From IMG/VR virus record IMGVR_UViG_2734482565_000006: a stretch of DNA of 38,835 bases; one strand, given 5' to 3'. Positions within the stretch are counted from its first letter, which is position 1. Every line of letters begins with the position of its first letter. Both the position numbers and the translations under genes were made by a program. Shown piece after piece: positions 153 through 38,835 of this stretch. Below the pieces are notes generated by a model that saw nothing but the letters and a program-made list of their open reading frames with translations, was not told the DNA's origin and made no database searches. Source of the stretch: a virus (lineage: Duplodnaviria > Heunggongvirae > Uroviricota > Caudoviricetes).

Positions 153-180
153 TTACAGCATGGTCAGGGAGGTCAGCAGC
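153..180 (-). other. displaced 3' end of the host ORF interrupted by the prophage
   Basis: Minus-strand frame ...CTG CTG ACC TCC CTG ACC ATG CTG TAA (stop at 153..155) is in phase with the host ORF fragment at 38792..38835 when the prophage is removed at the CAGCAGC repeat. Confidence 0.45.
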
Positions 181-206
181 CGCTTAGGCTGTCTATAGCG
201 CGGCGA

Positions 207-277
207 TTTTTTTGATACCGATTTGCATTTCATTTGATACCGCTGAAAAACGCCGATACGCAACTTATTTGATACTA
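207..277. repeat. attR-side array of three closely spaced putative transposase-binding repeats (TTTGATACCGA-like)
   Basis: Motif TTTGATACCG at 211..220 and 233..242, and TTTGATACT at 268..276, in one orientation; the reverse complement recurs at the other prophage end. Confidence 0.6.
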
Positions 278-321
278 AATCGGCGCTTTTCTTTTGAGTT
301 TTAGAATGAGTTTTTAAGCGT

Positions 322-1059
322 TCATTCACTCTCTTTCAAACCAGTTTTAACTGTTTGTGGTTTTGGGTAAGGCTGGACTTTGAATAGCTTTGTGTTAAGG
401 CGTTTTCTGGCTCTCTTGTCCAGAAACCGGATGTAACGAAACTGACGGAATTTATGAACACTGGCTCTGTCGATATTAGCCCGCAGATGTTCACCTCGCT
501 GTCCTCCTCGTTTGATTGCATTCTTGCAAATCTCGTGATACCACTCGCCATCAAGTTCATAGAATGTTGTTTCATGACTGCCTACATAATCAAAATTGCT
601 TGCCTGGTACACGACACCAAGACAGCCACAACGCTCATCTGCAAACGACTGAACCCACTGCACCTGCGGATAAAGTTGTCTGATTAGTTTGAGCGCGTAA
701 CTGATTGCCCTTGATTCGGAGTTTCTCGGCATACAGTCATGCAGCCATAACCGGTTAAGCTCCATATATTCGCGGTTCTGCGTGCCAGTTACGACGCGTG
801 CACCATTGTTTGGATTAAGGGCATAACCCCATTGCATTACGCCAACCAGCTCCCGTTCTGAAAATATGCCCAGATGAAGGTAGGAATTATTTACGAAACG
901 ATGGCTGTAATGTTTATTGACGACGACCAGCCGGGCCAGCCAGCAACTTATTGTCTCAACCCGTAACTCACGGGAGCCATAACCGACGATATTGTCGTTA
1001 TAGTGAATAAGTTCAGGCGTGCTGATGATACGGGATGTAACTTGCTTTCTGTTCCCCAC
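322..1059 (-). CDS. mom: DNA modification protein Mom
   Basis: Located immediately downstream of and overlapping com at the Mu right end, as in Mu. The long ORF (322..1254) has no internal ATG near the com stop; the GTG at 1059..1057 is preceded by AAGGAA and gives about 245 aa. The start is inferred. Confidence 0.7.
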
Positions 1060-1213
1060 GACAGGATTTCCTTGTGTATGTGGGGTGCTCTGTGGCGCTC
1101 TGAGATGTGATTTGATTGAGGGTTTTACAGCGCGGACATTTAACTTCCAGATAACTGAAGCTGGCTCGTGCCAGTAGCTTGTTACAATGTCGGCACCGTA
1201 TGTTTCGATACAT
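1013..1213 (-). CDS. com: Com, zinc-finger translational activator of mom
   Basis: Translation [35 protein letters not shown]... matches the Mu Com pattern (IRCxxCNKLL...CPRCK, two CxxC pairs). It overlaps the mom 5' end. The start is taken at the internal Met of the 81-aa ORF. Confidence 0.8.
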
Positions 1214-1260
1214 GGCCGCATAACCTCCTGCTTTGTTGTTGATATCTTTATCACTCAATC

Positions 1261-1346
1261 GATCGACAAAAACGATCGATTTGATTTATTTAATTGATAC
1301 AACAAATAACACGAAATGTCATTAGCGAAAATTTATGAGTTTGATC
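1261..1346. promoter_or_regulatory. mom upstream regulatory region with three GATC (Dam) sites
   Basis: GATC at 1261..1264, 1274..1277 and 1343..1346, within about 130 bp upstream of com in an AT-rich tract. In Mu the mom promoter is controlled by Dam methylation of upstream GATC sites. Confidence 0.4.
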
Positions 1347-1469
1347 ACTAATTTTAAACGGTGCTGTAACGCATAAGTGCTGAATGATTGTACATTTGAA
1401 TACCGCAAAGCAAACAAATCAACTAATTTATAGAAGTCAATTGGTTAATTGCCAGCGTAAGAGGCTGCT

Positions 1470-1763
1470 ATGGACAATCATGTAACGACGAGAAATCGAA
1501 AAATGATTGAAAATGCGGAAATCTATAATGATTATTTTTCCGATTATTCAGATGCCTGCAAATACAGTTCGAGTGCGGGAGAGTTCATATGCTTCAACTT
1601 TTTTATTAAATCTTATGTTTTTCCTCCACAGCAAGAAGATGGAGGTGTGCCACCTCCTGAAATCACTTTGCACCGTATAGCCTCCGTCTCAATGATGGAG
1701 CAACAGGCTAATGAGCTGTATAGCATTCTGGGAACGATTCTACAAAAGCGTGAATCGGACTAA
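1470..1763 (+). CDS. hypothetical protein (AT-rich, divergent from com-mom)
   Basis: 97-aa ORF with AAGAGG 8 nt upstream of the ATG; low GC relative to the phage core; no recognisable motif. Confidence 0.5.
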   Translation: MDNHVTTRNRKMIENAEIYNDYFSDYSDACKYSSSAGEFICFNFFIKSYVFPPQQEDGGVPPPEITLHRIASVSMMEQQANELYSILGTILQKRESD

Positions 1764-1897
1764 TGATACCGGTTCATTTGCCTGCCCGGATGGGGAAGCA
1801 GGATTGACTGCTCCATAAGCAGCTATATTTCTGAATACGAAATACTATCCAGCGATTACATATGGCTGGATAGCGGCAAAGATGTTTTCATTAGTGT

Positions 1898-1925
1898 CAA
1901 ACCGGCAGAGGACACCACCGGTTTG
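1898..1925. terminator. hairpin between convergent genes (possible bidirectional terminator)
   Basis: CAAACCGG-12 nt-CCGGTTTG perfect 8-bp stem between the + ORF 1470..1763 and the - ORF 1931..2185; a second 9-bp-stem hairpin CTATCCAGC/GCTGGATAG lies at 1845..1873. The U-tract is weak. Confidence 0.3.
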
Positions 1926-1930
1926 TATTG

Positions 1931-2185
1931 TTACATCATGGTACTGTCAGTTCCGGGCTGAGCCGGGTCTGGTTGCTCTGGCTGCGCGTCGGTTTTCGGC
2001 TCATTATCAGCATCACTGGCCGCAACTGCTGGCCCAATAAGTTTTGCCAGCACTTCATCAACGTAAGTGTCGATTTGTGCCTCAAAATCCTTGCGGACCT
2101 GCGCTTTCAGCAACTTATTTACTTCACCGGAATACAGTGCCTGTTTTACCAGGTCTTCAGTGACGGTGCCTTTAATTTCTGGCAT
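1931..2185 (-). CDS. hypothetical protein (acidic, Pro/Gln-rich C-terminus)
   Basis: 84-aa ORF with a canonical AGGAGG SD 7 nt upstream of the ATG at 2185. Confidence 0.55.
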   Translation of the reverse strand: MPEIKGTVTEDLVKQALYSGEVNKLLKAQVRKDFEAQIDTYVDEVLAKLIGPAVAASDADNEPKTDAQPEQPDPAQPGTDSTMM

Positions 2186-2220
2186 GTATATCCTCCTTAT
2201 GCGGGAATAAAGCCCTGCAA

Positions 2221-2403
2221 TCAGGGCTGGGTCGGGTCTTTTGGGAGCGGAGTTACCTGCGCTGTTTTACTGAGTTTTTCAGCTGCTGCGTCCTCAATTT
2301 TGCGGCGAACATAATTTCTGATGGCCTTATAACCACCACTCACCAGATATAACGCACATACTGCCGTGCAGAAATACAATAAAATAAGCTGTAAAAATGT
2401 CAT
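2221..2403 (-). CDS. small membrane protein (one predicted TM helix)
   Basis: Start taken at the internal ATG 2403..2401, preceded by GGAGG. Product MTFLQLILLYFCTAVCALYLVSGGYK... has a hydrophobic N-terminal helix followed by a charged tail. Confidence 0.5.
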   Translation of the reverse strand: MTFLQLILLYFCTAVCALYLVSGGYKAIRNYVRRKIEDAAAEKLSKTAQVTPLPKDPTQP

Positions 2404-2499
2404 TATCCCTCCCAATTATTGACATGGTGTTGACACCGGTAATATCTGTTAGGTAAAAAGGTGCACTGCATTTTTTGCTTTGGATATAACGATCTTTTT

Positions 2500-2540
2500 G
2501 CCGCCGGTTTCTTGTTTTCCCTTACCGGCGGCATTTTTTT
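2500..2540 (+). terminator. intrinsic terminator (plus-strand orientation)
   Basis: GCCGCCGGT-15 nt-ACCGGCGGC stem followed by ATTTTTTTA, with CTTTTT just upstream. The T-tract is only on the + strand. Confidence 0.5.
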
Positions 2541-2547
2541 ATCCTGC

Positions 2548-4602
2548 TTACGCGTTATTCACTTCCACCACGATACTGTCAATCAGTACCGGGTAAGTCG
2601 CATTTTTAGTGATATCGGTCACGCGCAACTTGTCTGCCGTAAACGTGCCGACCGGAGACTGCGACAGCATGAATGGTGTCCCGTCCTTACCATCAATGAC
2701 CGGCGTCACCTCAATACTGTTGTTACCGGCAAAACGGAAGCCCAGCGTATGCCATTCGTTATTAAATGCGCCGAATGACCCCAGCTTCGTGTTCTGCGCC
2801 GTGTTTCCTTTGTGATACATCACGTTAAGGTCTGTGGCATCGCTCTGTACGTAGAACGATGCCAGCAGGTTATGACCGGCATTTCCTTCCAGAGTAACCC
2901 CTTGCGGCAGGGCAGAAACCGGCCAGTACAGCGCCAGTGCGTACTGATTAGCCGTAAGCGCGCCATCGAGTTTAAAACGACAACTGACAAGACCACCTTT
3001 ACCCAGCAGGTCCGCACCATTACCAGCATCATGCTCAAGGTACCAGGGGGCTCTTCCTGTTTCCTTGGTCAGTTTCATTGCCTTACCCCCGCTGGCTCCG
3101 GCATCATCCACGATTTGAGCCTTGCCACCTCCGGCAGCCCAACCCTGTGGTGTCAACCGTCCTTCAGACTCAGATGCCCGGTAAGCAAATAGCGTACTCA
3201 TCGTCGTGGTGTCTGCGGGTGGCGTGGACGGTTTTGATGGTGTATCAGGTGACGGCTTCTCATCCGGTGGTGTCACGGTCTGCCCACGCATCAGTTCAGC
3301 CGTGCGCCCTGCATGGAGCATAATAGCTGAGGCCAGACGGTCTGAAATGACGCCCCTGCGTGCCCATGAGCTGAAATGGCTGTCACGCTGTGTCGAAACA
3401 AAACTGCCCTGGGTTCGGGATGCTGCACCGTAATACCCGACAGCCACAATATCCGGGTCTTCCGCCGGAGCATTCGTTGGCGTGCTCTGTCCATTCTCAT
3501 CCGTCAGGAACGGTACAAAGAAAATTTTCTGTGCTTCCTTGCCTTTGTAGCCACCGTATACTGCCTCATATTTATCGGTGCCAGCGTTTTTCCAGTAATA
3601 CGTGGTATCACCGCAAATCCACGGCACCGTGGTGGCATTTCCACTCACGCACTGCGCAGCAAGCGGAGCCAGGTCAGTTCTGAACTGCTGAACCATGGCC
3701 GTGAATAAACTATTATGCTGCTGGCTTCCTGAGGCAAGGTCTGCCTCTCCCTGCATCCAGACCACAGCCAGAAGTTTGTTTTTCGGGTTTTTCGCCAGCG
3801 CGACTTTGGTGCGGCTTACCAGGTCCTGATACAGAGGTTTACCGGCCCCCCAGCGTGAAGAATCAGCGGAAGCACCGCTGGCCTCACTGAATGAGCCGTC
3901 GGCTCCAGTGGTGAATGCTGACCCGCCACGACAACAGGGCACCAGAAGTATCCCGGCATTCTGTGGGATATAGGGAAGCAGTTTTTTGGCAATATGCAAC
4001 CCCTGACCGACAGTCCCGTACTGGCCTTTTGCCAGATCAGCTTTCGGGTGGTTTATCCCGCTCATATCCTGAACATCATGCAGGCAGTGGTCTGCCGGAA
4101 TGATGTCGTTGTATGTACACGACGTACCGTTGGGCGTTACCGTACTGCGGCGTGCCAGTTGCTTAATGCGTGGGTCCGGGCGGTCAAACGAATCCGGTAA
4201 CGGCAGCCCCTCGCCGTAGGCCATGCCATTTGACTGACCCGCGAGAATGACAACAAAGTAATATTCCGGCTCTGAACTGCTGCCATTCGTGCTACCGGAA
4301 GGCCCGGCGTTATCCGGTGCATTCCAGTCGGAGGGCGTGAGCGTTCCGGCCACGTCAGATGTGATTGGAATGATGCCAGTCACGCCTGAACTGGTGATTT
4401 CTGCACTGGGATTACCGGATACCGGCATTACCCATAATGGCTCTTTCGTGCTGAAGCGGATCACGCAGTCTGCGAAGGTGATCCCCCCTTTATTACCCGA
4501 AGGGCGGAAAGGGCTTTCAATAAATGCCACCGTGCCACCGGCAACCTTGACTGAAAACTCTCCGGGCATGGCGGAGAGCATTTTCCACTTGGAGTCTGAC
4601 AT
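2548..4602 (-). CDS. SGNH-hydrolase / sialate-O-acetylesterase-like protein (prophage NanS-p-like) with C-terminal putative carbohydrate-binding domain
   Basis: 684 aa. A central block YFVVILAGQSNGMAYGEG ... VVWMQGEAD resembles the GQSN and QGE(A/S) motifs of SASA/DUF303 esterases. It sits as cargo between gin and com-mom; the SD is weak. Confidence 0.65.
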   Translation of the reverse strand: MSDSKWKMLSAMPGEFSVKVAGGTVAFIESPFRPSGNKGGITFADCVIRFSTKEPLWVMPVSGNPSAEITSSGVTGIIPITSDVAGTLTPSDWNAPDNAGPSGSTNGSSSEPEYYFVVILAGQSNGMAYGEGLPLPDSFDRPDPRIKQLARRSTVTPNGTSCTYNDIIPADHCLHDVQDMSGINHPKADLAKGQYGTVGQGLHIAKKLLPYIPQNAGILLVPCCRGGSAFTTGADGSFSEASGASADSSRWGAGKPLYQDLVSRTKVALAKNPKNKLLAVVWMQGEADLASGSQQHNSLFTAMVQQFRTDLAPLAAQCVSGNATTVPWICGDTTYYWKNAGTDKYEAVYGGYKGKEAQKIFFVPFLTDENGQSTPTNAPAEDPDIVAVGYYGAASRTQGSFVSTQRDSHFSSWARRGVISDRLASAIMLHAGRTAELMRGQTVTPPDEKPSPDTPSKPSTPPADTTTMSTLFAYRASESEGRLTPQGWAAGGGKAQIVDDAGASGGKAMKLTKETGRAPWYLEHDAGNGADLLGKGGLVSCRFKLDGALTANQYALALYWPVSALPQGVTLEGNAGHNLLASFYVQSDATDLNVMYHKGNTAQNTKLGSFGAFNNEWHTLGFRFAGNNSIEVTPVIDGKDGTPFMLSQSPVGTFTADKLRVTDITKNATYPVLIDSIVVEVNNA

Positions 4603-4687
4603 CGTCTTTTCTGCCTGTTTCTGAATTAAACAGAGTCAGAATAGCGACCGCTGAAAAATATGTGTTTTGCGGAAATTCAAAAAAGCG

Positions 4688-5260
4688 TCACGGTACTTTT
4701 GGTGACGGAGCTGGTGAGGCAGGAAAATAACGATAAAGGGTGGAAAGGCCAATATCAAATATCAGTGCGATTTGTTTACGGGACTCGCCATTAGCCAGCA
4801 AACGGGCGATTTGCTCCCGCTCTTTCTCTGTCAGTTTCTGAGGTCTGCCGCCATGACGCCCCTGAGCACGGGCAGCAGCAAGACCCGCGCGTGTACGTTC
4901 AATAATGAGTTCCCGCTCCATTTCCGCCAGCGCGCCCATTATATGGAAAAAGAAACGTCCCATGGGAGTGGATGTATCAATATTGTCCGTAATGCTGCGG
5001 AAGTTAACGCCGCGTTGCCGGAGTTCTTCTGTTAAAAGGACAAGGTGCTGCATACTGCGTCCAAGGCGATCCAGTTTCCAGACCAGCAGGGTATCCCCTG
5101 GCCGGAGTCGCTTTAATGCGCGTTTAAGTCCGGGACGCTCCCTTGTCTTACCGCTTATTCTGTCTTCGAAAAACAGCTCACATCCTGCACATTCCAGCGC
5201 ATTTCTTTGTAGCGCCGTATTCTGGTCATTTGTTGACACCCTGATATACCCAATCAGCAT
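4688..5260 (-). CDS. gin: serine DNA invertase Gin
   Basis: MLIGYIRVSTNDQ... is a resolvase/invertase N-terminal catalytic motif; 190 aa; C-terminal HTH; adjacent to an inverted-repeat-bounded tail-fibre segment. Confidence 0.95.
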   Translation of the reverse strand: MLIGYIRVSTNDQNTALQRNALECAGCELFFEDRISGKTRERPGLKRALKRLRPGDTLLVWKLDRLGRSMQHLVLLTEELRQRGVNFRSITDNIDTSTPMGRFFFHIMGALAEMERELIIERTRAGLAAARAQGRHGGRPQKLTEKEREQIARLLANGESRKQIALIFDIGLSTLYRYFPASPAPSPKVP

Positions 5261-5325
5261 ACGATTTCCTTATTATAAAAAGCCGGAATTGTCGCATGAG
5301 GAATAAAACAGAGTTAATCCTGGCT

Positions 5326-5351
5326 TTCCTGAAAACCTCGGTTTACGGGAA
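5326..5351. repeat. gix-like recombination site (gin-proximal)
   Basis: TTCCTGAAAACC TC GGTTTACGGGAA: imperfect palindrome around a central TC, similar to the gix/hix consensus. The inner arm begins a 71-bp inverted repeat (5337..5407) matching 6530..6600 with 2 mismatches. Confidence 0.6.
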
Positions 5352-5642
5352 ACGGTAAACAGGGCGGCGAATGCTCTGCCATCGGACGGCACCGCCGTTG
5401 CCGCGAATAGACTCGCCACCCCAAGAAATATTAATGGGGTTCCCTTTGACGGGACGCAGGATATCAGGCTGGGAGCAGAGAACAGGCAGGTAATGTACGG
5501 TGGGGCATATTACTCTGCGTACGGTAATGTTATGGCAGGCCTGCAGATTGACAGTAAAGTTGATGCTTCAAACGATTTTATAGCATTCAGACCCCTGCAA
5601 AAATTAGTCGGAGGTACATGGATTACGGTATCTCAGTTATAA
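5337..5642 (+). CDS. promoterless alternative tail-fibre C-terminal cassette (S'v), silent in this orientation
   Basis: No start codon. The frame [27 protein letters not shown]... matches residues about 175-200 of the S protein, then diverges to a different 75-aa tip ending TWITVSQL; stop at 5640..5642. Confidence 0.6.
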   Translation, partial: LGLRETVNRAANALPSDGTAVAANRLATPRNINGVPFDGTQDIRLGAENRQVMYGGAYYSAYGNVMAGLQIDSKVDASNDFIAFRPLQKLVGGTWITVSQL

Positions 5643-5693
5643 ATAGTCAGTAAATAATATATTTTAAAACAGATTTATTTCCAGGAGGATTTT

Positions 5694-6215
5694 ATGGAAC
5701 TAAAAAATATAACCCGTTATTATCCTGAAAATATGCCATATGGTAATAATGTTCAGTATTTCCAGAGTGAAGATGGTAAGGATTTCTACGAATCCCTGCC
5801 ATTATTCACCAAAAAATATAAACTTTGCATAACACCTGACAGCGGCGTTATCTGCTCAATATCACAGGACGCCTCGGCGCTGTATCCTGCGGGGTTTTCT
5901 GTGGTTGAGGTCGATGAACTCCCTGAAGGCACGGATATTTCAGGAAACTGGAAGTTTGATAATGGCATAATCTCCCGTATTCCGGTTAACTACGCAAGAA
6001 AACTGGAAGCAATGCGCCAGTCATATCTTAATCAGGCATATGAAAAAATTAATGACTGGAGAACGGAGCTACAACTGGGCACCATCAGCGATGAAGACAG
6101 AGCAGCACTTACCCAATGGATGGCATACATCAGTCAGGTGAAGAAAATGGAACTACCCGCCATTAAAACAGAAGCTGAATTTAACGCCATTAAATGGCCT
6201 GAGCAGCCACAGTAA
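5694..6215 (+). CDS. tail fibre assembly protein (U'-like)
   Basis: 173 aa with AGGAGG SD; Tfa-like composition and C-terminus; inside the invertible segment and in the inactive orientation relative to the late operon. Confidence 0.8.
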   Translation: MELKNITRYYPENMPYGNNVQYFQSEDGKDFYESLPLFTKKYKLCITPDSGVICSISQDASALYPAGFSVVEVDELPEGTDISGNWKFDNGIISRIPVNYARKLEAMRQSYLNQAYEKINDWRTELQLGTISDEDRAALTQWMAYISQVKKMELPAIKTEAEFNAIKWPEQPQ

Positions 6216-6218
6216 TAA

Positions 6219-6236
6219 AGAAGGCCGGAAGGCCTT
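6219..6236. terminator. hairpin between convergent U' and S genes
   Basis: GAAGGCC GGAA GGCCTTC 7-bp stem; on the minus strand it is followed by TTTATTA. Confidence 0.4.
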
Positions 6237-6246
6237 CTGAATATCA

Positions 6247-7128
6247 TTATATACTTGCAGCCGTCACCCATGCTCCATTTAACAGATACTGCAACGGCCG
6301 GTAATACACGCCGCCGACGTTATCTGCCGTATTCTTACCGACATCCTGTACTTTAATTCCGGTAAGAACATTGCCGCCCCCCAGATTCAGATCCCAGCTT
6401 TCCCATGTTCCGGGCATATGTGCGGTCACCGACCCCAGTCTTATGGCGGTTACTGTTCCTGATGAGATAGTGATATCCTGCGTCCCGTCAAAGGGAACAC
6501 CATTAATTGTGTGGGCATTTGCCAGCCTGTTCGCGGCAACGGCGGTGCCGTCCGATGGCAGGGCATTCGCCGCCCTGTTTACCGTTTCCCGTAAACCGAC
6601 GTTATCGATAAAAGCCCCTTTATCCGGAATGTCTGCGCCGTTCTGCTCCCTGCGCAGGTAACGGTTATCACCTTCGCTTTTGCTGTAAACATCCAGATTA
6701 TTACGGGCGGTTCCCTTATTCTCCAGGTCGGCGAGATTCTGATCCTTCGCCAGGGCATTAACGTCAGCGGGACCAAGACTGTTTTTTGTGGCAAGCGTCC
6801 CCAGACCAAGATAACCACGGGCCAGACGCTGGGCCTCCGCACCGGCATCAGCAATTTCTTTCAGGTTATTTTTCCGGGAAAAGGCATTCGCAGCGATAAT
6901 GGCTTTAATGGACAGCGTAAGCTGGTTTAACTGCGCCTTATCCGGCTGAATACTGGCTTCAGCCAGAATATTCAGCAGTTCGGCCTGGAGAATATTCAGC
7001 CAGTCCTGACCAATCCAGCTGATACCTTTTTGTCCGTCACCTTCGGTAAACCAGGTGGTGGTATTACTCTGCGCCGGTGCCAGCGCAGGCATATTCGCCA
7101 CGCCGGAATTATTATCAACATGAAACAT
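6247..7128 (-). CDS. tail fibre protein S (constant N-terminal part plus variable tip currently in frame)
   Basis: 293 aa; its start overlaps the gp48 stop; the C-terminal about 117 aa lie inside the invertible segment, and the gix-like site falls within the coding sequence. Confidence 0.75.
6586..6611. repeat. gix-like recombination site inside the S gene
   Basis: TTCCCGTAAACC GA CGTTATCGATAA; the inner half is identical to the reverse complement of the site at 5326..5351, with the central dinucleotide GA versus TC. Confidence 0.6.
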
Positions 7129-7688
7129 TAAATAGTCTCCTCTTCATGGCTGTTTGCATAAACGTAAATAAACGTCTGCCATGCAGGCTTATAACGGTTC
7201 AGAATACATTCCAGCGCACCGCCTTCATAAATACGCAGCGGCGTGAGAATATCATCCAGCACATTCATATTCCGGTAGCCGGTTTCACTGTTAATCGTGA
7301 CAATACTGACCCACTGCGAATCCGGTGAGGGCTGAATGTCAATCTGATAACCAAACTCCGCCGCAAACCGGATATAAAATTCACGGTTCAGCGAGGGCTT
7401 CATCCGGTATTTATTTCCGGCATAACGCTGTCGCTCCGTGAGGGTGGCTCCGGCCATATCACACTCGGGAAGCCCGAGATAACGCTCCCAGTCTTCCAGC
7501 AGCAGGCGCGACGTGTCAGGGAAACGCTCGGCAAGCAGCTGTTTACCCGTCCAGGATACACGCGCTGTCGAATGACTGAGGCCCAGACATAATGATGCCA
7601 GTACGGATGACGGACGCTTGTCCCATGCCAGCCCGTCAGGCAGTAACTGCAACAGGGCGCGCTGATGCGGGGTCAGGGTTACAGCCAT
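7128..7688 (-). CDS. baseplate/tail protein (Mu gp48-like)
   Basis: 186 aa; position between the baseplate J-like gene and the tail fibre gene; translationally coupled on both sides. Confidence 0.65.
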
Positions 7689-30358: not shown

Positions 30359-30359
30359 A

Positions 30360-30503: not shown

Positions 30504-30828
30504 TATGTATCCCCTGTAATTCCGGCAAGGCCGAAAGATGGCACCAGTGCGTCACCTGTCCGTCCTCATCTTCAAGGCAGGCTCCGGTTTCTTCATCAAT
30601 AAAAAAGCCTTCATACCCCATATGGCCGATGCGCAGTTCCTGTTGGTCACCATACTGAACAATCAGCACGACAGCCTCCATATCAGGCGGAAATGCGTCA
30701 TCCAGTGAATGCCAGGGATAACCGCGCAAATCCCCGAAATAAACGCCGGTCAGCGTTCCGCCACAGAGCGGCATTCCGGCGGCACACACAAGAGGTTCAT
30801 CTGATTCAACAAATAAGGTCGTTATCAT
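30496..30828 (-). CDS. hypothetical acidic protein
   Basis: 110-aa ORF in the early-region operon; 4-bp overlap with the upstream gene. Confidence 0.45.
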   Translation of the reverse strand: MITTLFVESDEPLVCAAGMPLCGGTLTGVYFGDLRGYPWHSLDDAFPPDMEAVVLIVQYGDQQELRIGHMGYEGFFIDEETGACLEDEDGQVTHWCHLSALPELQGIHNG

Positions 30829-31376
30829 GGCGTTAACTCCCGTAATACAGCGTCCTCGGCAGTCCGGCGACGGTAATAAACTGCGTGAGCAGAATGTTCA
30901 GATATTCCAAACTTTTCGCCAATTTCCCGGAATGACAGACGGCGTGGGTAATCGGAATCACGCAGCTCACGTATAAGACGTACATCATCATCAGATATGC
31001 GCGTGCCGGGGCGTAACTCTCCGCACTTTGTTAATCCAGCACCAATCATTCCTGCCCGACATCTGACAGAATCTTTATTACGTCCGAGATATTCTCCCAT
31101 TTGCTGGCAGGTCATTGTTCTGGCATTTTTTCGAATAAACTTATCTTCATCAGGTGTAAATCTTGGGTGTTTATATTTCAGTAACTCCGGGTATGAACTG
31201 CGCAATACACCAGTCCGGTTATATACAGCCCAGACAGTTCTTTTTATTCTGGCAGCAATATCCTTAACCGGGGTGGATGAATAAAGCGCAATCAGCAGCG
31301 CATCTTCTTCAGGTGTCCACGGACGGACATGAGCGGGGGCGCGACCTTTTAGTCCCATGGGTTGTAATTTCATCAT
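30825..31376 (-). CDS. protein with three Myb/SANT-like internal repeats (putative DNA-binding)
   Basis: Repeats PWTPEEDALLIALY..., RFTPDEDKFIRKNA..., RISDDDVRLIRELR... each followed by a basic helix. Confidence 0.5.
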   Translation of the reverse strand: MMKLQPMGLKGRAPAHVRPWTPEEDALLIALYSSTPVKDIAARIKRTVWAVYNRTGVLRSSYPELLKYKHPRFTPDEDKFIRKNARTMTCQQMGEYLGRNKDSVRCRAGMIGAGLTKCGELRPGTRISDDDVRLIRELRDSDYPRRLSFREIGEKFGISEHSAHAVYYRRRTAEDAVLRELTP

Positions 31377-31379
31377 GCA

Positions 31380-31895
31380 TCACCCCCTGACTCGCTTTTC
31401 AGCAGCATAAAACTCATCAGACAGTATTTCGGTCATTTTCTGTTTTGCGGGTTTTACGCCGCACTGAAGGTAAATCACATCGTCAACGCAGAACCACTTC
31501 ACAGGGCCAAACAGGATTGCCGAGAAATCAATACCCAACCAGAACAACAGCGCATCGGTTCTGGCATACGTGACGGGCGAATATTCACGCCACAGACTGT
31601 TCAGTTCATCAGAGGCAACACGCAGGGTTTTAGGGATACGTGATGTGCGCGGTGTGCAGCTCCAGCCATTCGACGCAGTCGGTTTTCGCCATAAGTCGCG
31701 ATGAAAAGGATATTTGTCCTCCGTAAAACGCAGTCCCTTAAAGTAAAATCCACTGATACCGGATACAAATACCGACCGGCACGCAACATTCAGCACGGCC
31801 TCAAGGCGTTTTGCCTCATCCTTAACTTTCTGGCAGTCCTGCTGGTATTTTTGCCACGCAGCCAGCGCGGAAGGGTTTGATGTTTTAAAGAACAT
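31380..31895 (-). CDS. hypothetical protein
   Basis: 171-aa ORF with an ATGA-type overlap with the upstream gene. Confidence 0.5.
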   Translation of the reverse strand: MFFKTSNPSALAAWQKYQQDCQKVKDEAKRLEAVLNVACRSVFVSGISGFYFKGLRFTEDKYPFHRDLWRKPTASNGWSCTPRTSRIPKTLRVASDELNSLWREYSPVTYARTDALLFWLGIDFSAILFGPVKWFCVDDVIYLQCGVKPAKQKMTEILSDEFYAAEKRVRG

Positions 31896-32428
31896 TACGC
31901 CACCTCCGCAGATATCCCGGCAGGCGCTGCTGTCCGGTCAACAATCAGGTAGCGCAGAACATGTTCAGTGATATTCCAGCCGCTTAAACCGCAGATAATG
32001 ACGCCCAGGCGTATGTCGATATACGCCATCACAAACTGGGGCACGCCTTCTTTCATGGCCTGCTCATCAACTTCAGCCACCACATAAACGGTTTCACAGG
32101 TCAGAACGCCCTGAGCAAATTCCCACGCCATCGACGGAATATCATGCCCCTCAATCCATGGCAGGGATTTTCTGAAGCCGCACCACTGAACATCATCAGC
32201 CGCAGATTCCTGGCTGCATTTGCGACGAACCGGCTGCACCGGGCGGGGACGCGGAATATCATAAAAACCGTTACATTCCGTCAGCACGCCTGCATCAACC
32301 GCATCACGCAGAAAATAAACCATGGAGGATGGCGGCATATTCATTTTTTCAGCCAGTACACCGCAGGTCAGGCGGCCATAAATACACAGCCAGTTTTTAA
32401 CCCCTTCAAGCACTTTTGCATCAATCAT
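31895..32428 (-). CDS. hypothetical protein
   Basis: 177-aa ORF downstream of gam. Confidence 0.5.
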   Translation of the reverse strand: MIDAKVLEGVKNWLCIYGRLTCGVLAEKMNMPPSSMVYFLRDAVDAGVLTECNGFYDIPRPRPVQPVRRKCSQESAADDVQWCGFRKSLPWIEGHDIPSMAWEFAQGVLTCETVYVVAEVDEQAMKEGVPQFVMAYIDIRLGVIICGLSGWNITEHVLRYLIVDRTAAPAGISAEVA

Positions 32429-32573
32429 GATTTATTTCCCCACCACATTATTAATGACGATATAAACGTATTTCATATTTCTTAACCCTTATTTTCTGTT
32501 TTCAGGCGCAAGCAGTCCCCTGACGCGAGCGCCATAATTAAAATGAAGTGATATTTAATTGATTAATGCGGTG

Positions 32574-33104
32574 TTATTTATTCAGTCCGGCGTCCTGTTC
32601 AAAAGGCTCGACATAAAAACTTTCAGCGCCTTTATTCACCTTGATACCGGCAATGCCTTTCACAGCATCCGGCTCCGCCAGGACGGCTTCCTTGTTCACT
32701 TCCTCTTTCGTGCGGATGAAACGCTCAAGCCCCATACGGCGCAGCATTTCAATCACACCTTCCACATCACGGCTGACGCTGCATGATGGCGTTCCCAGCC
32801 GCCATGACACCGTTCCGGTGGTCAGATTGGCTGTTTTGGTTTTGCCGCCGTTCGTCAGCTCATCACGGTTGGTTTTGCACCAGTCCTGAATCCCTTTAAA
32901 AAGCACTTTGATTTGCTTTTTAAGATTTTCAATCTGCGGCGTATAACGGGCGGTGATTTCTGCCACTTCGTCATTCATCGCCGTTTCCAGGCGCAGCGCC
33001 TCTCGCTGAATATCTCCCAGGGTGCGGATATCACGGCTGACTTCTTCCCGGGTCTGCGGTGCCGCCTCGGCTGCGGCCTTTAATTTTGTAACGCGTTTAG
33101 CCAT
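32574..33104 (-). CDS. gam: host-nuclease inhibitor Gam
   Basis: 176 aa; blocks LRLETAMNDEVAEIT, NRDELTNGGKTKTANLTTGTVSWR and ERFIRTKEEVNKEA match the Mu Gam family pattern. Confidence 0.9.
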   Translation of the reverse strand: MAKRVTKLKAAAEAAPQTREEVSRDIRTLGDIQREALRLETAMNDEVAEITARYTPQIENLKKQIKVLFKGIQDWCKTNRDELTNGGKTKTANLTTGTVSWRLGTPSCSVSRDVEGVIEMLRRMGLERFIRTKEEVNKEAVLAEPDAVKGIAGIKVNKGAESFYVEPFEQDAGLNK

Positions 33105-33115
33105 TTTGTTTTTCC

Positions 33116-33409
33116 TTATTGCAGTGTGCCTGATGCTTTATGCACGCGGTGGCGTTTAATGATGGCATCCGCTCCAAAAGACTGTGCAGATGCCTGAAAT
33201 TCCGCTGAGAGAAACTGAATAATTGCAGGACTGTGATACTGGAGAATACTTGCATAAACGTCACAGAGTGACGTCGGCCTGTTATCCGTATCACGTTCTG
33301 TTTTCACATCCACTCCAATCTTTTCATGCACTTCAACACAGTCATTGCCTGCCAACTTTTCGTCATGCGAAACATGATTAAATTCAAAAATAACGCGTAC
33401 TTTGCTCAT
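33116..33409 (-). CDS. hypothetical protein, tandem paralogue B
   Basis: Start taken at MSKVRVIFEFNH...; shares its N-terminal motif with the adjacent upstream ORF. Confidence 0.5.
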   Translation of the reverse strand: MSKVRVIFEFNHVSHDEKLAGNDCVEVHEKIGVDVKTERDTDNRPTSLCDVYASILQYHSPAIIQFLSAEFQASAQSFGADAIIKRHRVHKASGTLQ

Positions 33410-33413
33410 GGAA

Positions 33414-33686
33414 TTACCCCTGTTGATTAAATTCATTACCGTTAATAACCCCGGAAGCCATGCCTCTGTCTTTCATGAATGCACTGGCTTTCATTGCCAC
33501 AAACTCTGCGAAGTTTCTGCTTTCTGCCAGCATAACCACCCCAAAAATCATGGCGGGTCCATTATCTTTCTTCTTTATTCCGGTTGAACGTATATCCAGA
33601 CTTACCCCTCTGTGCGTGCTGCCATCAGAGTTTTTGCAGATAACATCTTCCTTGTATTCGAAAATAATGCGTACGACTTTACTCAT
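33414..33686 (-). CDS. hypothetical protein, tandem paralogue A
   Basis: MSKVVRIIFEYKEDV...; same N-terminal signature as 33116..33409; AT-rich. Confidence 0.5.
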   Translation of the reverse strand: MSKVVRIIFEYKEDVICKNSDGSTHRGVSLDIRSTGIKKKDNGPAMIFGVVMLAESRNFAEFVAMKASAFMKDRGMASGVINGNEFNQQG

Positions 33687-33964
33687 CCTCTGGTCCTCGT
33701 TCTGTTTGGATAACTGACCCGGCGTCTAACCTCACGGCAGAACCGAATCATGGCATTAAAGGCTTCTTCCTCCGTCACCGCTTCCGGTATCCCCGGAACC
33801 AGTAACTGCTCCTGTTCATCACGTCCATGACGCGCCATAACCTCAATCACATGCCGTACCGTGGCAGGCTTTCCGGCAACTATCGGCAATGCACCTTCCG
33901 GCAGGACGTAACCAAACTCAATAAGACCACTCGACCACGCCCATGCAATGAGATTTTTTTTCAC
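33683..33964 (-). CDS. hypothetical protein
   Basis: 93-aa ORF with a 4-bp overlap with its downstream neighbour. Confidence 0.45.
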   Translation of the reverse strand: MKKNLIAWAWSSGLIEFGYVLPEGALPIVAGKPATVRHVIEVMARHGRDEQEQLLVPGIPEAVTEEEAFNAMIRFCREVRRRVSYPNRTRTRG

Positions 33965-33965
33965 C

Positions 33966-34232
33966 TCACACCTCCCAGTAAACCGTGCAGCCGCTGATGC
34001 GGGTGGCCTTCACACGGCGGCGCAGGCCGTTGGTCTGTATGGTGATTTCAATTTCACCGGTTCCCTGCACGTTGCCTACCGGCGGCGTGGTTTTCAGTGC
34101 AAAACGTTGCGGATAGCGCTTACTGCGTTCCAGTACCGCACCGGCAAGTTCGGTCAGACGGCGCGCGCTGTTCAGGGAGTCGAATAAATTCATTTTGTTA
34201 CCGCAGGATTGCATATTCATATAACACCTCAT
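33966..34232 (-). CDS. hypothetical protein
   Basis: 88-aa ORF; start uncertain (several in-frame Met near the N-terminus). Confidence 0.4.
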   Translation of the reverse strand: MRCYMNMQSCGNKMNLFDSLNSARRLTELAGAVLERSKRYPQRFALKTTPPVGNVQGTGEIEITIQTNGLRRRVKATRISGCTVYWEV

Positions 34233-34460
34233 TTAGCTGACTTGTTTCGCACCAACAGAACGGCATATTCCGCTGTAAACTTCTGTCGCACCTTCGCGAT
34301 CAAGTCCGGCAGATATCACCATTCGTGTGCGGTCATTAAATTCAAAAAGTAAATCGCCACATTCTTTATTTTCGGCCAGTGAAATCACCTTCACGTTATC
34401 GAAATTAACCAGGTAAAAGCGTCCGTAAATATCAGGAATATTAAATACCGCCATAATCAC
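34233..34460 (-). CDS. hypothetical protein
   Basis: 75-aa ORF immediately downstream of B with a 4-bp overlap. Confidence 0.45.
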   Translation of the reverse strand: MIMAVFNIPDIYGRFYLVNFDNVKVISLAENKECGDLLFEFNDRTRMVISAGLDREGATEVYSGICRSVGAKQVS

Positions 34461-35398
34461 ACCTGTGAGAGTAATTCAGGGTTGGTATAAACCTCTTTAA
34501 AGGCCGCATTAATATGTTTTTCTGTCAGCGCCGCGCCTTCACCGCTGGCGGTGAGCCACGCCTGGTTAAGCGTATGTGTCAGAACGCGTAACGCTCCCGG
34601 CTTTTCAGCGATAGCCTGCATGACGGCCAGCTCGGCCTCACCACTGATCCCCCACGCCATGGCAATGGCCAGCACATCCGCCTTTTTGGCCTTGCGAAGT
34701 TGTTTTGTACGGGCAAGACGGCTGAACAGGCGCGATAAATCATCAAAGGCGCGGCGTCCACCTTTAAACAATCCGCGCGGGTTACCAATAAGCACCATCC
34801 CGATCCCCGTGGCGTCCTGAATTGCCCGGAGTTGCTCCAGACCGTCAATACCAAGATGATCCGCCTCATCCACAATCACCAGTCCACGCGTTCCCATCAG
34901 GCGACGGCGGATGGCGCGGGATAATGCCCCTTTGTTCGCGCGGGTGTAATCAATCCCCAGCGCATCGGCCAGCTCCAGCAGACACTCCGTGACGCTGGAG
35001 TGCGCGGGTGACAGGGTGATCATCCAGGTGTTTGGTTGCTCCTGGCAGTAATTACGGGCAGTGGCCGTTTTACCCACACCCGGTACGCCCACAATAACGT
35101 TAATACAGCCCATCAGGCGAACCGCCTGAAACAGTGCGCGCAGCTCCTGGACTGTCTGAGTTTCCACAAACTGCGGCGGTTCCGGCAGTGCGCTTTGTTT
35201 ATTCCAGTTCTCATACCAGGAGCGCAGGGAAGCAGCCACAGCAGCGTTATCGCCTTTATATTTTCCCTTACGGAAAGCCGATAATGTGCCGTCGGAAATT
35301 CCCGCCTCTCTGGCGATGGCATACTGCGTCAGTACGCCGCCATCAATAAGTTCATCAATGGTCTTGATTACATCGTTAATATCGGTCATATTATTCAC
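34457..35398 (-). CDS. B: transposition protein B (AAA+ ATPase target-DNA activator)
   Basis: 313 aa; Walker A VGVPGVGKT, Walker B-like LVIVDEADHL; N-terminal HTH; immediately downstream of the transposase. Confidence 0.9.
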   Translation of the reverse strand: MNNMTDINDVIKTIDELIDGGVLTQYAIAREAGISDGTLSAFRKGKYKGDNAAVAASLRSWYENWNKQSALPEPPQFVETQTVQELRALFQAVRLMGCINVIVGVPGVGKTATARNYCQEQPNTWMITLSPAHSSVTECLLELADALGIDYTRANKGALSRAIRRRLMGTRGLVIVDEADHLGIDGLEQLRAIQDATGIGMVLIGNPRGLFKGGRRAFDDLSRLFSRLARTKQLRKAKKADVLAIAMAWGISGEAELAVMQAIAEKPGALRVLTHTLNQAWLTASGEGAALTEKHINAAFKEVYTNPELLSQV

Positions 35399-35471
35399 CT
35401 CGCTTGAGACAGCATTCTCCGAGACTGAAACCTCAAATAACCTGAGTCACCCCTCGGGTTATTTTTTTATT

Positions 35472-37559
35472 TCAGGCCAGCGGATCACTTTCTTTTAATT
35501 TCGCTTCGAGCAGTTGCAATCCCCGCTGGAAATTACGCTCGTATTCTTCATCAGGTTCATCGTCAGCGACCGGTTGCTGAACGGTCACCGTATTACCCAC
35601 AGGGCGGTATATGTTTTCCAGCCAGGGCTCCTGCGGCTTGTGCTCCAGCACGTTGACAACCTCATCCTCGGCATCACGGATTTTTTCCTCTGCGCGTTTA
35701 CGCATGCCTTTAAGGCGCTGCTGCTGTTTGTAGTATTCCGCGCTGACAGGGAAGGCTTCGCGTTTATTGCCGTCCCATACCGCCTCGCAAATCACGCTGC
35801 CATCCGGGCGGCGCACGGTAATTCGTTCGGCATCATGAATGTCATAGCTGATAAGTACCTTACGGCCATGCTCGTCACGCAGCTCGGGCGCGTAGTAAAT
35901 ATTATTCAGCCAGCGTATTTCACAGCGTCTTACAGGGCGCTCCACCATCGGCCGGAACATATCCCGCAGTTCAACATCGGACAGCCATTCAATTTCCGTG
36001 TCCTCTTCCGCCAGGCGTTTTTTTCTGAACTCCGCCGGGCTGTAATGTTTACCGTTCGGCTTCATGGGTAATTCATCGTGCGGCCGGTTGTTGTACCACT
36101 CAACACCGTCACGAATGGCATCAATCAGTTCAGACCAGGACGGTAAATCACGCATCGCTGACTGCTGCCGGGCGTTCAGCCGTTTGCCCTGTTGCAGGGC
36201 ACTGAATGCCGAGCGTAAATCGCGGTTGGTTTTACGTAACGTCTCGCGATCTGCTCCTTTCCCGAAATAGGTGCGGTATTTACGGGCTATGCGCATCGGT
36301 AATGTGCGGTTAAGCCGTTCGATAATGCCCCGTCCCTGCGGATTACCGGCAATCCCTGTCGGGTGATTAATCCCCAGTCGTGGCAGTATCCCCACAATCT
36401 CCTTATCCAGGACGTCGGCGGTTTCCCCGGAGCCATTATCCGAGTAATACAGAAACGGTTTGCCATGATGGCGAATACCGTGCTGTATGGCACCGGCTAC
36501 GGCGAAAACATTTTCAGCCAGGTCAAGGCTCCAGCCCACCACAAAGCGCGTGCCACCGTCGATAACAAAGGTCACTTCCGGTGCGAATGGCCGCCCGTGA
36601 ACCGGGTGCGCGCATTTCAGCTTCATGCCGTGACCGTCACCAATCCAGACATAATTCACCGGCATTCTGGACCAGTCGCGGCGCGTGAATCCCTCAAGCT
36701 GACGGTATTCACTGCCAGTTACCCGGCCTTTTTGTTTCACCACTTCCGGCAGTTTCTTCATTGCGCGGCGAATGGTGTCATAAGAGGGCATGATATCGAG
36801 CATATAAGGCTCATCAGCGTGCCGGTGCTGCCATTCAGCAACAAAATCCTCGTAAGCCTCGGTCATTGGTCGGCCGTTTGACTGGCGATACTGCGCCAGA
36901 AATTCGGGCAGCCAGTTAATATCTTCGGCTTTTATTTCCTGGCGTTTACCCGGTGCCAGTAAAAGCAGGCGTTCAGCGGCGTTCTGTGCCTTGTTAAAGG
37001 CCGCAATCCAGCGTTTCAGCGTGATTTCACTCAACGCGCGGCTGTTTCCCTTTTTGGCGTTCGCCGTCTCAACCATTGCCACAATGCGCTCGTCCAGTTG
37101 TGATCGTGCCAGGCTGTTAACGAGGAACCGGATAGCTTTAGCGCAGCTGAAACCGGGTTGTTGCGTGAATTTCAGCACCTCACTGACGATCGCAATGCGT
37201 GCGTCTGCCACCTGGCGCTGGTTTTCAGTCAGGGCATTGAGGCGTTCGACCATCAGTTGTGGTGATCCGCGATATGCCTCCACCGCATCAACCACGGCAG
37301 ACGAGCGTCTGGCCTTTGTCACCACCGGAGCCGGTGATTCATCGGCTTTTTGCGTCATCAGTTGCAGGGCATAACGTTCGCGTAATGCCTGCTGTGTCAC
37401 TTCAGGTAAACAGTCAATGCTGTATTCAAAACCTTTAGCGCCTTTCTTGCGGCGTCTGCTGGTTTCGCTGGTTGCATACTTCCTGATTGAATAGCGAACG
37501 CCTTGCTCCGTTCCCGGCATCCCCGGTAATCCAACCAGTTCTTTAACTGAAGCAAACAT
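35472..37559 (-). CDS. A: DDE transposase A (MuA-like)
   Basis: 695 aa; N-terminal Mu-type DNA-binding domain (LVGLPGMPGTEQGVRYSIRK...KKGAKGFEYSIDCLPE); follows ner by 3 bp. Confidence 0.95.
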   Translation of the reverse strand: MFASVKELVGLPGMPGTEQGVRYSIRKYATSETSRRRKKGAKGFEYSIDCLPEVTQQALRERYALQLMTQKADESPAPVVTKARRSSAVVDAVEAYRGSPQLMVERLNALTENQRQVADARIAIVSEVLKFTQQPGFSCAKAIRFLVNSLARSQLDERIVAMVETANAKKGNSRALSEITLKRWIAAFNKAQNAAERLLLLAPGKRQEIKAEDINWLPEFLAQYRQSNGRPMTEAYEDFVAEWQHRHADEPYMLDIMPSYDTIRRAMKKLPEVVKQKGRVTGSEYRQLEGFTRRDWSRMPVNYVWIGDGHGMKLKCAHPVHGRPFAPEVTFVIDGGTRFVVGWSLDLAENVFAVAGAIQHGIRHHGKPFLYYSDNGSGETADVLDKEIVGILPRLGINHPTGIAGNPQGRGIIERLNRTLPMRIARKYRTYFGKGADRETLRKTNRDLRSAFSALQQGKRLNARQQSAMRDLPSWSELIDAIRDGVEWYNNRPHDELPMKPNGKHYSPAEFRKKRLAEEDTEIEWLSDVELRDMFRPMVERPVRRCEIRWLNNIYYAPELRDEHGRKVLISYDIHDAERITVRRPDGSVICEAVWDGNKREAFPVSAEYYKQQQRLKGMRKRAEEKIRDAEDEVVNVLEHKPQEPWLENIYRPVGNTVTVQQPVADDEPDEEYERNFQRGLQLLEAKLKESDPLA

Positions 37560-37561
37560 AA

Positions 37562-37792
37562 TTACGCGACCTTACGAATGTAGCGGCTGGGCCAAATCTC
37601 CTCGGGCGGCACCCCCAGGCATTCCGCGATAATCCCCTCATACTTGGGAACATGGCGGTATACCGCGTTGTACAGATTGTTCTGACCCACGCCAGCTTTA
37701 CGGGCCAGCGCCCTCATGCTTCCTTCTCTGGCTCTGACTTCCCCCAAAATTCTTTGAGGATGCCAATCAGGCTTAACTTCATTTCTCGCCAT
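37562..37792 (-). CDS. ner: Ner-like DNA-binding regulator
   Basis: 76 aa; DWHPQRILGEVRAREGSMRALARKAGVGQNNLYNAV...EEIWPSRY matches the Mu Ner pattern (DWHRADVIAGLKKRKLSLSALSRQFGYAPTTLANAL...EVIWPSRY). Confidence 0.85.
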   Translation of the reverse strand: MARNEVKPDWHPQRILGEVRAREGSMRALARKAGVGQNNLYNAVYRHVPKYEGIIAECLGVPPEEIWPSRYIRKVA

Positions 37793-37977
37793 GATTCATC
37801 TATCCTAAAAAGTTACGAAATTTGATAACTAAACTTAGTTATCAAGTTTGATATAAGTATTGATCCACTTCTGCTTCATGTAAAGCAAAAAAAACATCTT
37901 TCTTTTGTCTATTGTGGATCAATGGTTGCTGACAACACTAAAAGTTAATAATTTCAAATTGATAGGAAGAAAAGAAA
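37793..37977. promoter_or_regulatory. divergent early/repressor promoter-operator region
   Basis: AT-rich 185-bp gap between ner (-) and the repressor (+). Perfect palindrome TTGATAACTAA-ac-TTAGTTATCAA at 37822..37845; inverted repeat ATTGATCCAC (37859..37868) / GTGGATCAAT (37914..37923). Confidence 0.5.
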
Positions 37978-38523
37978 ATGAACAAGCAAACAACAACATC
38001 TCTTTCTTTTCCTGGTGGTAGAAAAGAAAGCATTGCTGAGCGTCTGAAAAGGCTGATTGGCTCCCGCAGCGTCAGAGCTGCAGCAAGAGATTGGGGGCTT
38101 TCATTTTCAACACTAAACAATTATCTGTCTCGTGGCACTGAGCCATCCTTAAGTGTCGCCCTTCAGATTGCGTCTATCGAAGGAGTAAGTGTTGAGTGGC
38201 TATGTGGATTCAGTGATGCATCACAAGTGAATCGGTGTGAGATCAAGGAAAATCAAGATGAAAGCAAGAAGATAATTATGACGATTATCAGCGCACTTGA
38301 TGAAAAAGACTTAGAGCAGCTATCGAAAAATTTGGTTCTGAATGGAGCCAAGTACTTAGCTCGGTTGTTAGAGCCTGAAAATCAAGATCTAATCCGCTTA
38401 GAAGGAAGGAAAAGAATAGCTGCATTACAGCTTGAAGGTATGTCTGACGAACGCGTCAGAGAGATTTTGGAAGAAACTGAGAGAAGTCGCAAATCTAACG
38501 CGGTAGAACCAAAAGCGGGTTAA
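37978..38523 (+). CDS. prophage repressor (XRE/CI-type HTH, no peptidase domain)
   Basis: 181 aa, divergent from ner-A-B next to attL. N-terminal RDWGLSFSTLNNYLSRGTEPSLSVALQIASIEGVSVEWL has an XRE-family HTH pattern; it lacks the MuA-like motif. Confidence 0.65.
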   Translation: MNKQTTTSLSFPGGRKESIAERLKRLIGSRSVRAAARDWGLSFSTLNNYLSRGTEPSLSVALQIASIEGVSVEWLCGFSDASQVNRCEIKENQDESKKIIMTIISALDEKDLEQLSKNLVLNGAKYLARLLEPENQDLIRLEGRKRIAALQLEGMSDERVREILEETERSRKSNAVEPKAG

Positions 38524-38597
38524 TAGCATTAGCCCGCATTTTGCACTATATCGAGTATTTCGCATTGTTTGGAACGCCTTAAAAGACTAAAACCACA

Positions 38598-38752
38598 GTA
38601 TCAAATGAGTTGCCGATTTTATAATAAATGACTAATTATTGCACAATCGGTATCAAATAGACCTTATCCGCACATCTAGCCATCACCTGTTTTATTTCAG
38701 TATCTTACAGGTGATTTCACCTCCTTTCACTAAACCCCTTGTCGGTATCAAA
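38598..38752. repeat. attL-side array of three dispersed putative transposase-binding repeats (reverse complement of TTTGATACCGA)
   Basis: AGTATCAAA 38598..38606, CGGTATCAAA 38648..38657, TCGGTATCAAA 38742..38752. The wide spacing (51 and 95 bp) contrasts with the contiguous sites at the other end. Confidence 0.55.
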
Positions 38753-38756
38753 TGAT

Positions 38757-38835
38757 TCACCTGGTTATATGTCGCCAGTCGATACCTTCCAGCAGCATCG
38801 CCAGCTGCGCCTGTGTAAGGAACACTTTGCCATCA
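38757..38835 (-). CDS. interrupted host gene, 5' portion, now terminating inside the prophage end
   Basis: Minus-strand frame ...DGKVFLTQAQLAMLL (host, 38835..38792) continues as EGIDWRHITR and stops at TGA 38757..38759 inside the prophage; the original C-terminus TSLTML is at 153..180. Confidence 0.4.
   Translation of the reverse strand, partial: DGKVFLTQAQLAMLLEGIDWRHITR

Follow-up and report, generated by a model that had tools for sequence, protein, structure and literature searches.

A Sp18-type Mu-like prophage in an IS66-family tnpB gene: a 4-bp TGTC target duplication and a CAGCAGC repeat that belongs to the target

Where does a Mu-like prophage that fills nearly all of a viral contig begin and end, and what did it insert into? 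The contig in question, IMG/VR record IMGVR_UViG_2734482565_000006 (38,835 nucleotides; hereafter the window), carries the heptamer CAGCAGC near both edges, and minus-strand phage open reading frames (ORFs) fill the interval between the two copies, with a plus-strand repressor ORF near the right end. An earlier note had read the heptamers as a target-site duplication produced by a recent integration into a host ORF. Our analysis leads, with high confidence, to a different placement of the same event: a 38,576-bp Sp18-type Mu-like phage (194..38769) that entered an IS66-family (ISEc8-like) tnpB gene at codons 103/104 through DDE transposition. Directly established are the junctions, a TGTC duplication, the empty site, termini conserved across insertions, repeated end motifs and a complete Mu-type gene set. 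The features on which the argument turns are as follows.

1..103, minus strand: 5' part of tnpC, an IS66-family transposase gene (start codon at 103..101), from its match to ISEc8.
153..193, minus strand: 3' fragment of tnpB (codons 104-115 and the stop, ...QPKRLLTSLTML*), which the prophage separates from the remaining codons.
174..180: left CAGCAGC, Leu-Leu codons of tnpB; pre-existing and not a target duplication, from the empty-site comparison.
190..193: left copy of the target-site duplication, TGTC, from the empty site and end alignments.
194..38769, minus strand: Sp18-type Mu-like prophage, 38,576 bp, 5'-TATAGCG...GGTTATA-3'.
38770..38773: right copy of the target-site duplication, TGTC, from the empty site and end alignments.
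38770..38835, minus strand: upstream part of tnpB (...DGKVFLTQAQLAMLLEGIDWR), reading on into the phage end as HITR*.
38790..38796: right CAGCAGC, tnpB sequence, likewise pre-existing from the empty-site comparison.

To locate the empty site, positions 1..180 were joined to 38797..38835 and searched against 5,426 complete E. coli genomes. The joined query returned thousands of matches, all of them in IS66-family elements (ISEc8 tnpB/tnpC). Every match came in two pieces, with 171 nt of query spread over 207 nt of record, so the true empty site is 36 nt longer than a join at the heptamers allows. In an uninterrupted ISEc8 copy (NZ_CP033401.1), which served as the reference, the sequence across the heptamers reads ...ggtCAGCAGCcgcttaggcTGTCgccagtcgataccttcCAGCAGCatcg... 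(equivalently ...ggtCAGCAGCcgcttaggcTGTCgccagtcgataccttcCAGCAGCatcgcc...), with both heptamers already in place, 36 nt apart, where they encode Leu-Leu pairs in the TnpB C-terminus (...AMLLEGIDWRQPKRLLTSLTML*). When window positions 1..193 and 38774..38835 are joined instead, keeping one TGTC, the product aligns gap-free to 1501..1707 of that record (207 nt, 99.5% identity). The left flank thus extends to 193 and the right flank restarts at 38770, and the intact element at the point of insertion reads ...cgcttaggcTGTCgccagtcg....

These alignments decide between the two placements. The earlier note had set the element at 181..38791 (or 181..38789), with a 5-bp GCAGC (or 7-bp CAGCAGC) duplication, a CA terminus at the repressor side and a host ORF healed by excision at the repeat. 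In its favor, the heptamers do exist at the positions it gave, as re-reading of the sequence confirmed; removal of everything between them does leave an open minus-strand frame (...AMLL/TSLTML*); and phage Mu has CA ends and duplicates 5 bp of its target (PMC8705779). The open frame, however, loses its force as evidence, since that join drops 36 nt, or 12 codons (EGIDWRQPKRLL), of the TnpB C-terminus and the frame is kept because 36 is a multiple of three. Positions 181..193 and 38770..38789 are insertion-sequence DNA rather than phage DNA, as is the supposed terminal CA (38790-38791), and homology among independent prophage copies ends at 194 and 38769. Moreover, such a placement would leave 28 and 37 nt between the ends and the first repeat of the putative transposase-binding core described below, whereas each of the true ends is 15 nt away from it. 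The comparison that the note itself had named as a check gives the outcome that it had declared refuting: the empty site joins not at the repeat but at a single TGTC, 13 nt to the right of the left heptamer and 16 nt to the left of the right one. Its junction and duplication are refuted by the empty site, and we give that arrangement practically no credence. What survives is the core of the proposal—a complete, apparently intact Mu-like prophage, borne out by Pfam domains, the gene tables of relatives and end homology, that transposed into an ORF and left a readable target duplication. What falls is the rest: the junctions lie between 193 and 194 and between 38769 and 38770, the duplication is TGTC and measures 4 bp, and the "host" ORF is the accessory gene of an insertion sequence rather than a chromosomal gene.

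The assignment of the target to the IS66 family follows the 99.5% identity of the flanks to ISEc8 tnpB/tnpC; tnpA and the ends of the insertion sequence lie outside the window. Insertion leaves a truncated TnpB product ending ...EGIDWR-HITR*. We also observed that tnpC of the target element is not colinear with the reference: window positions 49..193 correspond to 1501..1645 of the ISEc8 record, but 5..64 correspond to 377..436 (90% identity), with about 1.06 kb missing and a short overlap at the joint. This tnpC thus appears to be internally deleted, which, if true, would make the insertion-sequence copy transposase-defective. Given a truncated TnpB and an apparently deleted tnpC, the insertion site is probably selectively neutral.

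An independent view of the termini comes from other copies of the same phage. We aligned both ends of six whole prophages, inserted in a ybaE/sgrR-family gene, a diguanylate cyclase gene, bcsA, xdhA, flgL and elyC, together with twelve junctions at the mom-side end from eleven distinct sites and both ends of an "inserted Mu-like phage", Mu_JNE122137, within an Stx1a phage record (LC727895.1). At the mom side, conservation begins exactly at TATAGCGCGGCG (TATAGCG, window position 194) in all 20 copies (these 19 and the window). At the repressor side, it stops exactly at ...CACCTGGTTATA (window position 38769) in the window and the six whole prophages, all of which end in ...GGTTATA; Mu_JNE122137 differs in ending ...GGTTACA, a canonical ...TACA where the window has ...TATA (positions 94..97 of that copy against 38766..38769). 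The window and six further E. coli copies therefore have 5'-TA...TA-3' termini, whereas Mu_JNE122137 combines TA at the mom end with TG at the repressor end (CA-3'). The presence of TA/TA copies at at least seven different sites argues that TA-3' ends are evidently competent for transposition.

All eight insertions that could be read at both ends (8/8) carry a 4-bp duplication: TGTC, TGTT, CGTA, CGTC, CACA, TGCG, TCTA and AGAG. The last of these, in LC727895.1, was confirmed on both sides as a 4-mer, the comparison covering those four bases alone; the record labels its 4-bp repeat_regions "duplication due to insertion of Mu_JNE122137", and the database submitters had thus already recognized the 4-bp duplication. 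A second empty site agrees: when a single TGTT is kept between the flanks of the ybaE insertion, the joined sequence matches intact ybaE over 88 nt at 100% identity, and it is found at ≥99% identity in 4,658 of 5,371 matching genomes. Many unrelated insertion sites with a short duplication of fixed length, and empty sites verified at two of them (tnpB and ybaE), are what a transposable phage leaves behind.

Could the duplication nonetheless be the 5 bp of Mu, with one junction base mutated or, what amounts to the same, the element shorter by a base at one of its ends? The phage does encode A and B proteins of Mu type, and published transposable phages give duplications of 5 or 6 bp (PMC8705779). 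In the window, however, the fifth base fails on both sides (CTGTC against aTGTC on the left, TGTCt against TGTCG on the right, phage bases in lower case). With C in the insertion sequence facing A in the phage to the left of TGTC, and G facing T to the right, a fifth duplicated base is impossible. Across the six whole prophages, the base after the right-hand repeat is never the T of the element, and the base before the left-hand repeat matches its A once. Both empty sites fit only a 4-bp duplication, and we regard a 5-bp event as very improbable.

The duplicated 4-mers were also inspected for a target preference. In the first eight sites, positions 1 and 3 were pyrimidines in 8/8, but this asymmetry fell to 15/19 when 11 more sites were added, and it was dropped as a candidate property. 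Read in element orientation over 19 sites (the window and 18 others), positions 1 and 3 are pyrimidines in 15/19 each, a post hoc count compatible with a weak preference or with chance. Additionally, a degenerate pattern spanning both termini (TATARCSMGGYGAWTYWTTTGATACCGA) had no match in a scan of species-representative genomes.

The structure of the phage ends is consistent with these limits. The termini form an imperfect inverted repeat of 28 bp, identical at 20/28 positions and starting with TATA. At both ends, a 12-mer recurs as a putative transposase-binding core, CATTTGATACCG (with ambiguity, (C/T)ATTTGATAC(C/T)(G)).

194..277, plus strand: mom-side (attR-type) end, with closely spaced core copies at 209, 231 and about 266.
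38596..38769, minus strand: repressor-side (attL-type) end, with core copies at 38743-38754, 38648-38659 and 38596-38607.

The core matches nine places in the window where 3.4 would be expected, and five of the nine lie at the two ends; the mom-side copy near 266 is degenerate and was found by eye. The distance from the terminus to the first copy is 15 nt at each end. On the mom side the copies are contiguous, whereas the first repressor-side copy stands about 95 nt from the next. This 3 + 3 arrangement of inverted, putative binding repeats, with the first attL-side site set apart, is shared with Mu, in which R1-R3 lie together and L1 is set apart from L2 and L3. It also agrees with the six end sites reported for Sp18 in the passage of PMC2628397 that cites earlier work on them.

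The proteins that would act on these ends are encoded near the repressor side. The predicted transposase A is 23% identical to MuA (E = 1e-13) and its partner B is 48% identical to MuB. The catalytic core of A, on the other hand, matches Rous/avian sarcoma virus (RSV/ASV) integrase in the PDB (TDNGS...GNSQGQAMVERAN, VERAN motif) and not the core of MuA; the putative catalytic residues are D308, D374 and E414, which would set the D-E spacing at 40 residues, compared with 56 for MuA. We propose that A would bind three sites per end through the core CATTTGATACCG, the first of them 15 nt from the terminus, and would nick the 3' ends (TA-3' in the window copy). Together with the MuB-like ATPase, it would then join these 3' ends to target phosphates staggered by 4 nt, and gap repair would yield the 4-bp duplication.

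Several considerations temper the reading of transposition into this tnpB copy. The binding sites and catalytic residues are deduced from repeats and alignments, and any inducibility of this copy is putative. The flanks span only 193 and 66 nt, so that the wider context, chromosome or plasmid, falls outside the window, and the insertion sequence bearing the prophage could have moved later by recombination between copies. Along these lines, instead of transposing into this particular copy, the prophage might have arrived together with the IS sequence, either because IS66-family copies recombined homologously or because a composite unit moved. IS66-family elements are indeed multi-copy (a median of two places per complete E. 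coli genome), the target tnpC carries a rearrangement, and in AP043639, CP069093 and AP022815 the two ends of related prophages lie far apart in the genome or in opposite orientation, which points to rearrangements, and implies recombination, between multiple copies. The junctions in the window are nevertheless those of a clean transposition product, with exact termini, a 4-bp duplication and an otherwise colinear insertion sequence, and the available flanks are too short to show later movement. We therefore consider such an arrival unlikely and retain direct transposition into tnpB as the favored account.

As for the age of the event, the tnpB junction occurs in none of the 5,426 genomes, which fits a private and possibly recent insertion. 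A perfect duplication and a private junction agree with the recent integration that the earlier note had suggested, and they are its only support; neither of them dates the event.

What kind of phage is this? The mom-side end region (at least 80% of it) is present in 226 of the 5,426 genomes, at many different loci, and the annotated gene tables of relatives are colinear with the window. Copies in O157:H7 strains are 95.7% identical over the mom end but cover only 39% of the repressor-end query, and the immunity region of these Sp18-like copies differs from that of the window. Records annotated as "inserted Mu-like phage" are 92% identical over 76% of 24.8 kb. Sp18 of O157:H7 Sakai and Sp18-like phages such as Mu_JNE122137 have the same gene order and size (about 38.6-39.3 kb), and the Sp18-like phages show 92-100% DNA identity over the regions compared, with the same TATAGCG mom-side terminus and the same 4-bp duplication (LC727895.1). 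Identity, synteny, com/mom, an invertible segment linked to gin and a NanS-p-like cargo all place the window among them. The label was assigned through the O157:H7 copies and a published description (PMC10132054). According to that description, such E. coli Mu-like phages are called Sp18-like and occupy variable sites, 6/10 of them inside other mobile elements (PMC10132054). Relatives are described as Sp18-like and transposition-competent (PMC10132054, PMC7430833, PMC2669165), and Sp18 is predicted to be intact, with its DNA efficiently packaged (PMC2669165). The prophage of the window is, in short, an ordinary member of an already known family. Some relatives have themselves received insertion sequences: ISEc43 and ISEc22, both of the IS66 family, in NZ_AP045820.1, and ISKpn26 in NZ_CP145714.1.

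The gene content completes this picture; the left (repressor) end of the phage itself corresponds to the high-coordinate side of the window.

322..1059, minus strand: mom (Pfam Mom, 7.8e-78).
1013..1213, minus strand: com, mapped from the Com protein of relatives onto the window ORF 1013..1258.
1931..2185, minus strand: DUF826 gene of the cargo cassette.
2221..2403, minus strand: DUF1378 gene of the cargo cassette.
2548..4602, minus strand: cargo gene for a 684-aa SASA esterase with DUF6645, from Pfam and protein comparison.
4688..5260, minus strand: Gin-like serine recombinase (Resolvase and HTH_7, Pfam).
5331..6606: invertible host-range segment, bounded by inverted repeats at 5331-5466 and 6471-6606 that are 93-97% complementary.
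5694..6215, plus strand: tail-fibre assembly gene, the sole assembly gene inside the invertible segment.
6247..7128, minus strand: tail-fibre gene S, the 3' part of which overlaps the invertible segment.
7128..29780, minus strand: late region with baseplate, tape measure, tube, sheath, major head, protease, portal, terminase, lysis, Mor and gp16 genes, from the annotation of relatives.
34457..35398, minus strand: B, a MuB-type AAA+ activator of target DNA (AAA_22 and Phage-MuB_C, Pfam).
35472..37559, minus strand: A, a 695-aa DDE transposase (HTH_Tnp_Mu_1 and Mu-transpos_C, Pfam).
37562..37792, minus strand: ner-type early regulator (HTH_35, Pfam).
37978..38523, plus strand: c-type repressor (weak HTH_3 match), divergent from ner.

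A and its AAA+ partner B stand beside a c/ner switch at one end of the genome, and the size of 38,576 bp, with Mor/gp16 and head and tail genes, falls within the range of transposable phages (about 36-40 kb). The annotation of relatives supplies the full Mu plan: gam, mor, lysis, terminase, portal (DUF935), protease, gpT head, sheath, tube, tape measure, baseplate, tail fibre and com. In the two relatives used for this comparison, the annotated lengths of all major ORFs agree with those in the window. Intactness was judged by these ORF lengths rather than by full-length alignment, and at that level an apparently intact prophage is supported. Relatives also carry a PGAP feature called "tRNA-OTHER" between the minor-head and virion-morphogenesis genes (about 21233..21312 in the window). 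ARAGORN found no tRNA and Rfam no family at gathering thresholds in this interval, and the feature is probably an artefact of annotation or else a structured element as yet unclassified.

The cargo cassette (1931..4602) lies between the gin-like invertase and com/mom, in the order esterase, DUF1378, DUF826. The 684-aa esterase is 63-68% identical to Stx-phage proteins annotated as "yjhS / 9-O-acetyl-N-acetylneuraminic acid deacetylase" (NanS-p type). In Stx phages, DUF1378 and DUF826 genes presumably adjoin nanS-p, and if this neighborhood holds, the cassette looks borrowed from lambdoid/Stx phages. PADLOC gave no defence-system match among the cargo and semi-essential-region proteins tested, and NCBIfam gave no names for the cargo proteins. 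In the invertible segment, the assembly gene faces away from S in the present orientation, so that the S variant expressed would have no adjacent assembly gene. Gene positions annotated in one of the relatives (L003) are offset from those of the window in a way that suggests about 57 nt fewer in the window, at some point between invertase and assembly gene.

In itself, then, the window adds a further copy to a common E. coli prophage family that is already annotated, and the duplication once proposed for it is a chance repeat in the target gene. The case exposes a trap of wider relevance: when a short repeat happens to restore a reading frame, that is no evidence of a target duplication, and the ends of transposable phages need independent insertions or an empty site to be fixed. 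Prophage-boundary tools, or assumptions carried over from Mu (5 bp, TG/CA), would misplace the ends of the Sp18-type lineage. The combination of a 4-bp duplication, TA termini and an integrase-like core characterizes the lineage as a whole and can already be seen in public annotation. No paper stating or analyzing the 4-bp duplication in these Mu-like phages of E. coli was found by full-text literature searches; the Mu genome paper of 2002 lay outside these searches, and the point may be published there. That paper, by Morgan et al., reportedly analyzed the ends of Sp18. We advance only tentatively, at somewhat less than even chances, the idea that the Sp18-type lineage is a mechanistically distinct Mu-like branch, which would combine end-binding and C-terminal domains of MuA type with a compact, integrase-like DD(40)E core, a 4-nt stagger and TA-3' or CA-3' termini. 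The lineage lends itself naturally to the question of what determines the target stagger and the requirement for terminal dinucleotides in transpososomes of the MuA family.

Set against Mu (NC_000929), the window shares the overall plan—c and ner-A-B, gam, mor, lysis, head, contractile tail, an invertible fibre segment with a serine invertase and com-mom at the far end—as well as the N- and C-terminal domains of MuA in its A protein and transpositional integration at many sites. At the DNA level, however, only about 600 bp in the portal/minor-head region resemble Mu, D108 and SfMu, at about 72% identity, and the close relationship to these phages, the 5-bp duplication and the 5'-TG...CA-3' termini that mark a Muvirus are all missing. 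The end sequences and binding motif of Mu are unrelated to those of the window, and Mu has nothing comparable to the NanS-p-like esterase, DUF1378 and DUF826 genes between gin and com. Duplications of 5 bp in Mu and 6 bp in B3-type phages have been reported (PMC8705779, 2021), in contrast to the 4 bp and TA...TA ends of the present lineage; and TG-CA termini were conserved in all Mu- and B3-like phages described before the TA-TA prophages of Leptospira (PMC8705779). Finally, B3/D3112-type phages and these Leptospira prophages are also transposable and also use rve-like DDE transposases, and the Leptospira group provides a precedent for TA-3' termini that can be transposition-competent. Their duplications measure 6 bp and their transposases are of Tn552/B3 type, whereas the phage in the window pairs MuA-specific terminal domains and a MuB-like partner with a duplication of 4 bp.

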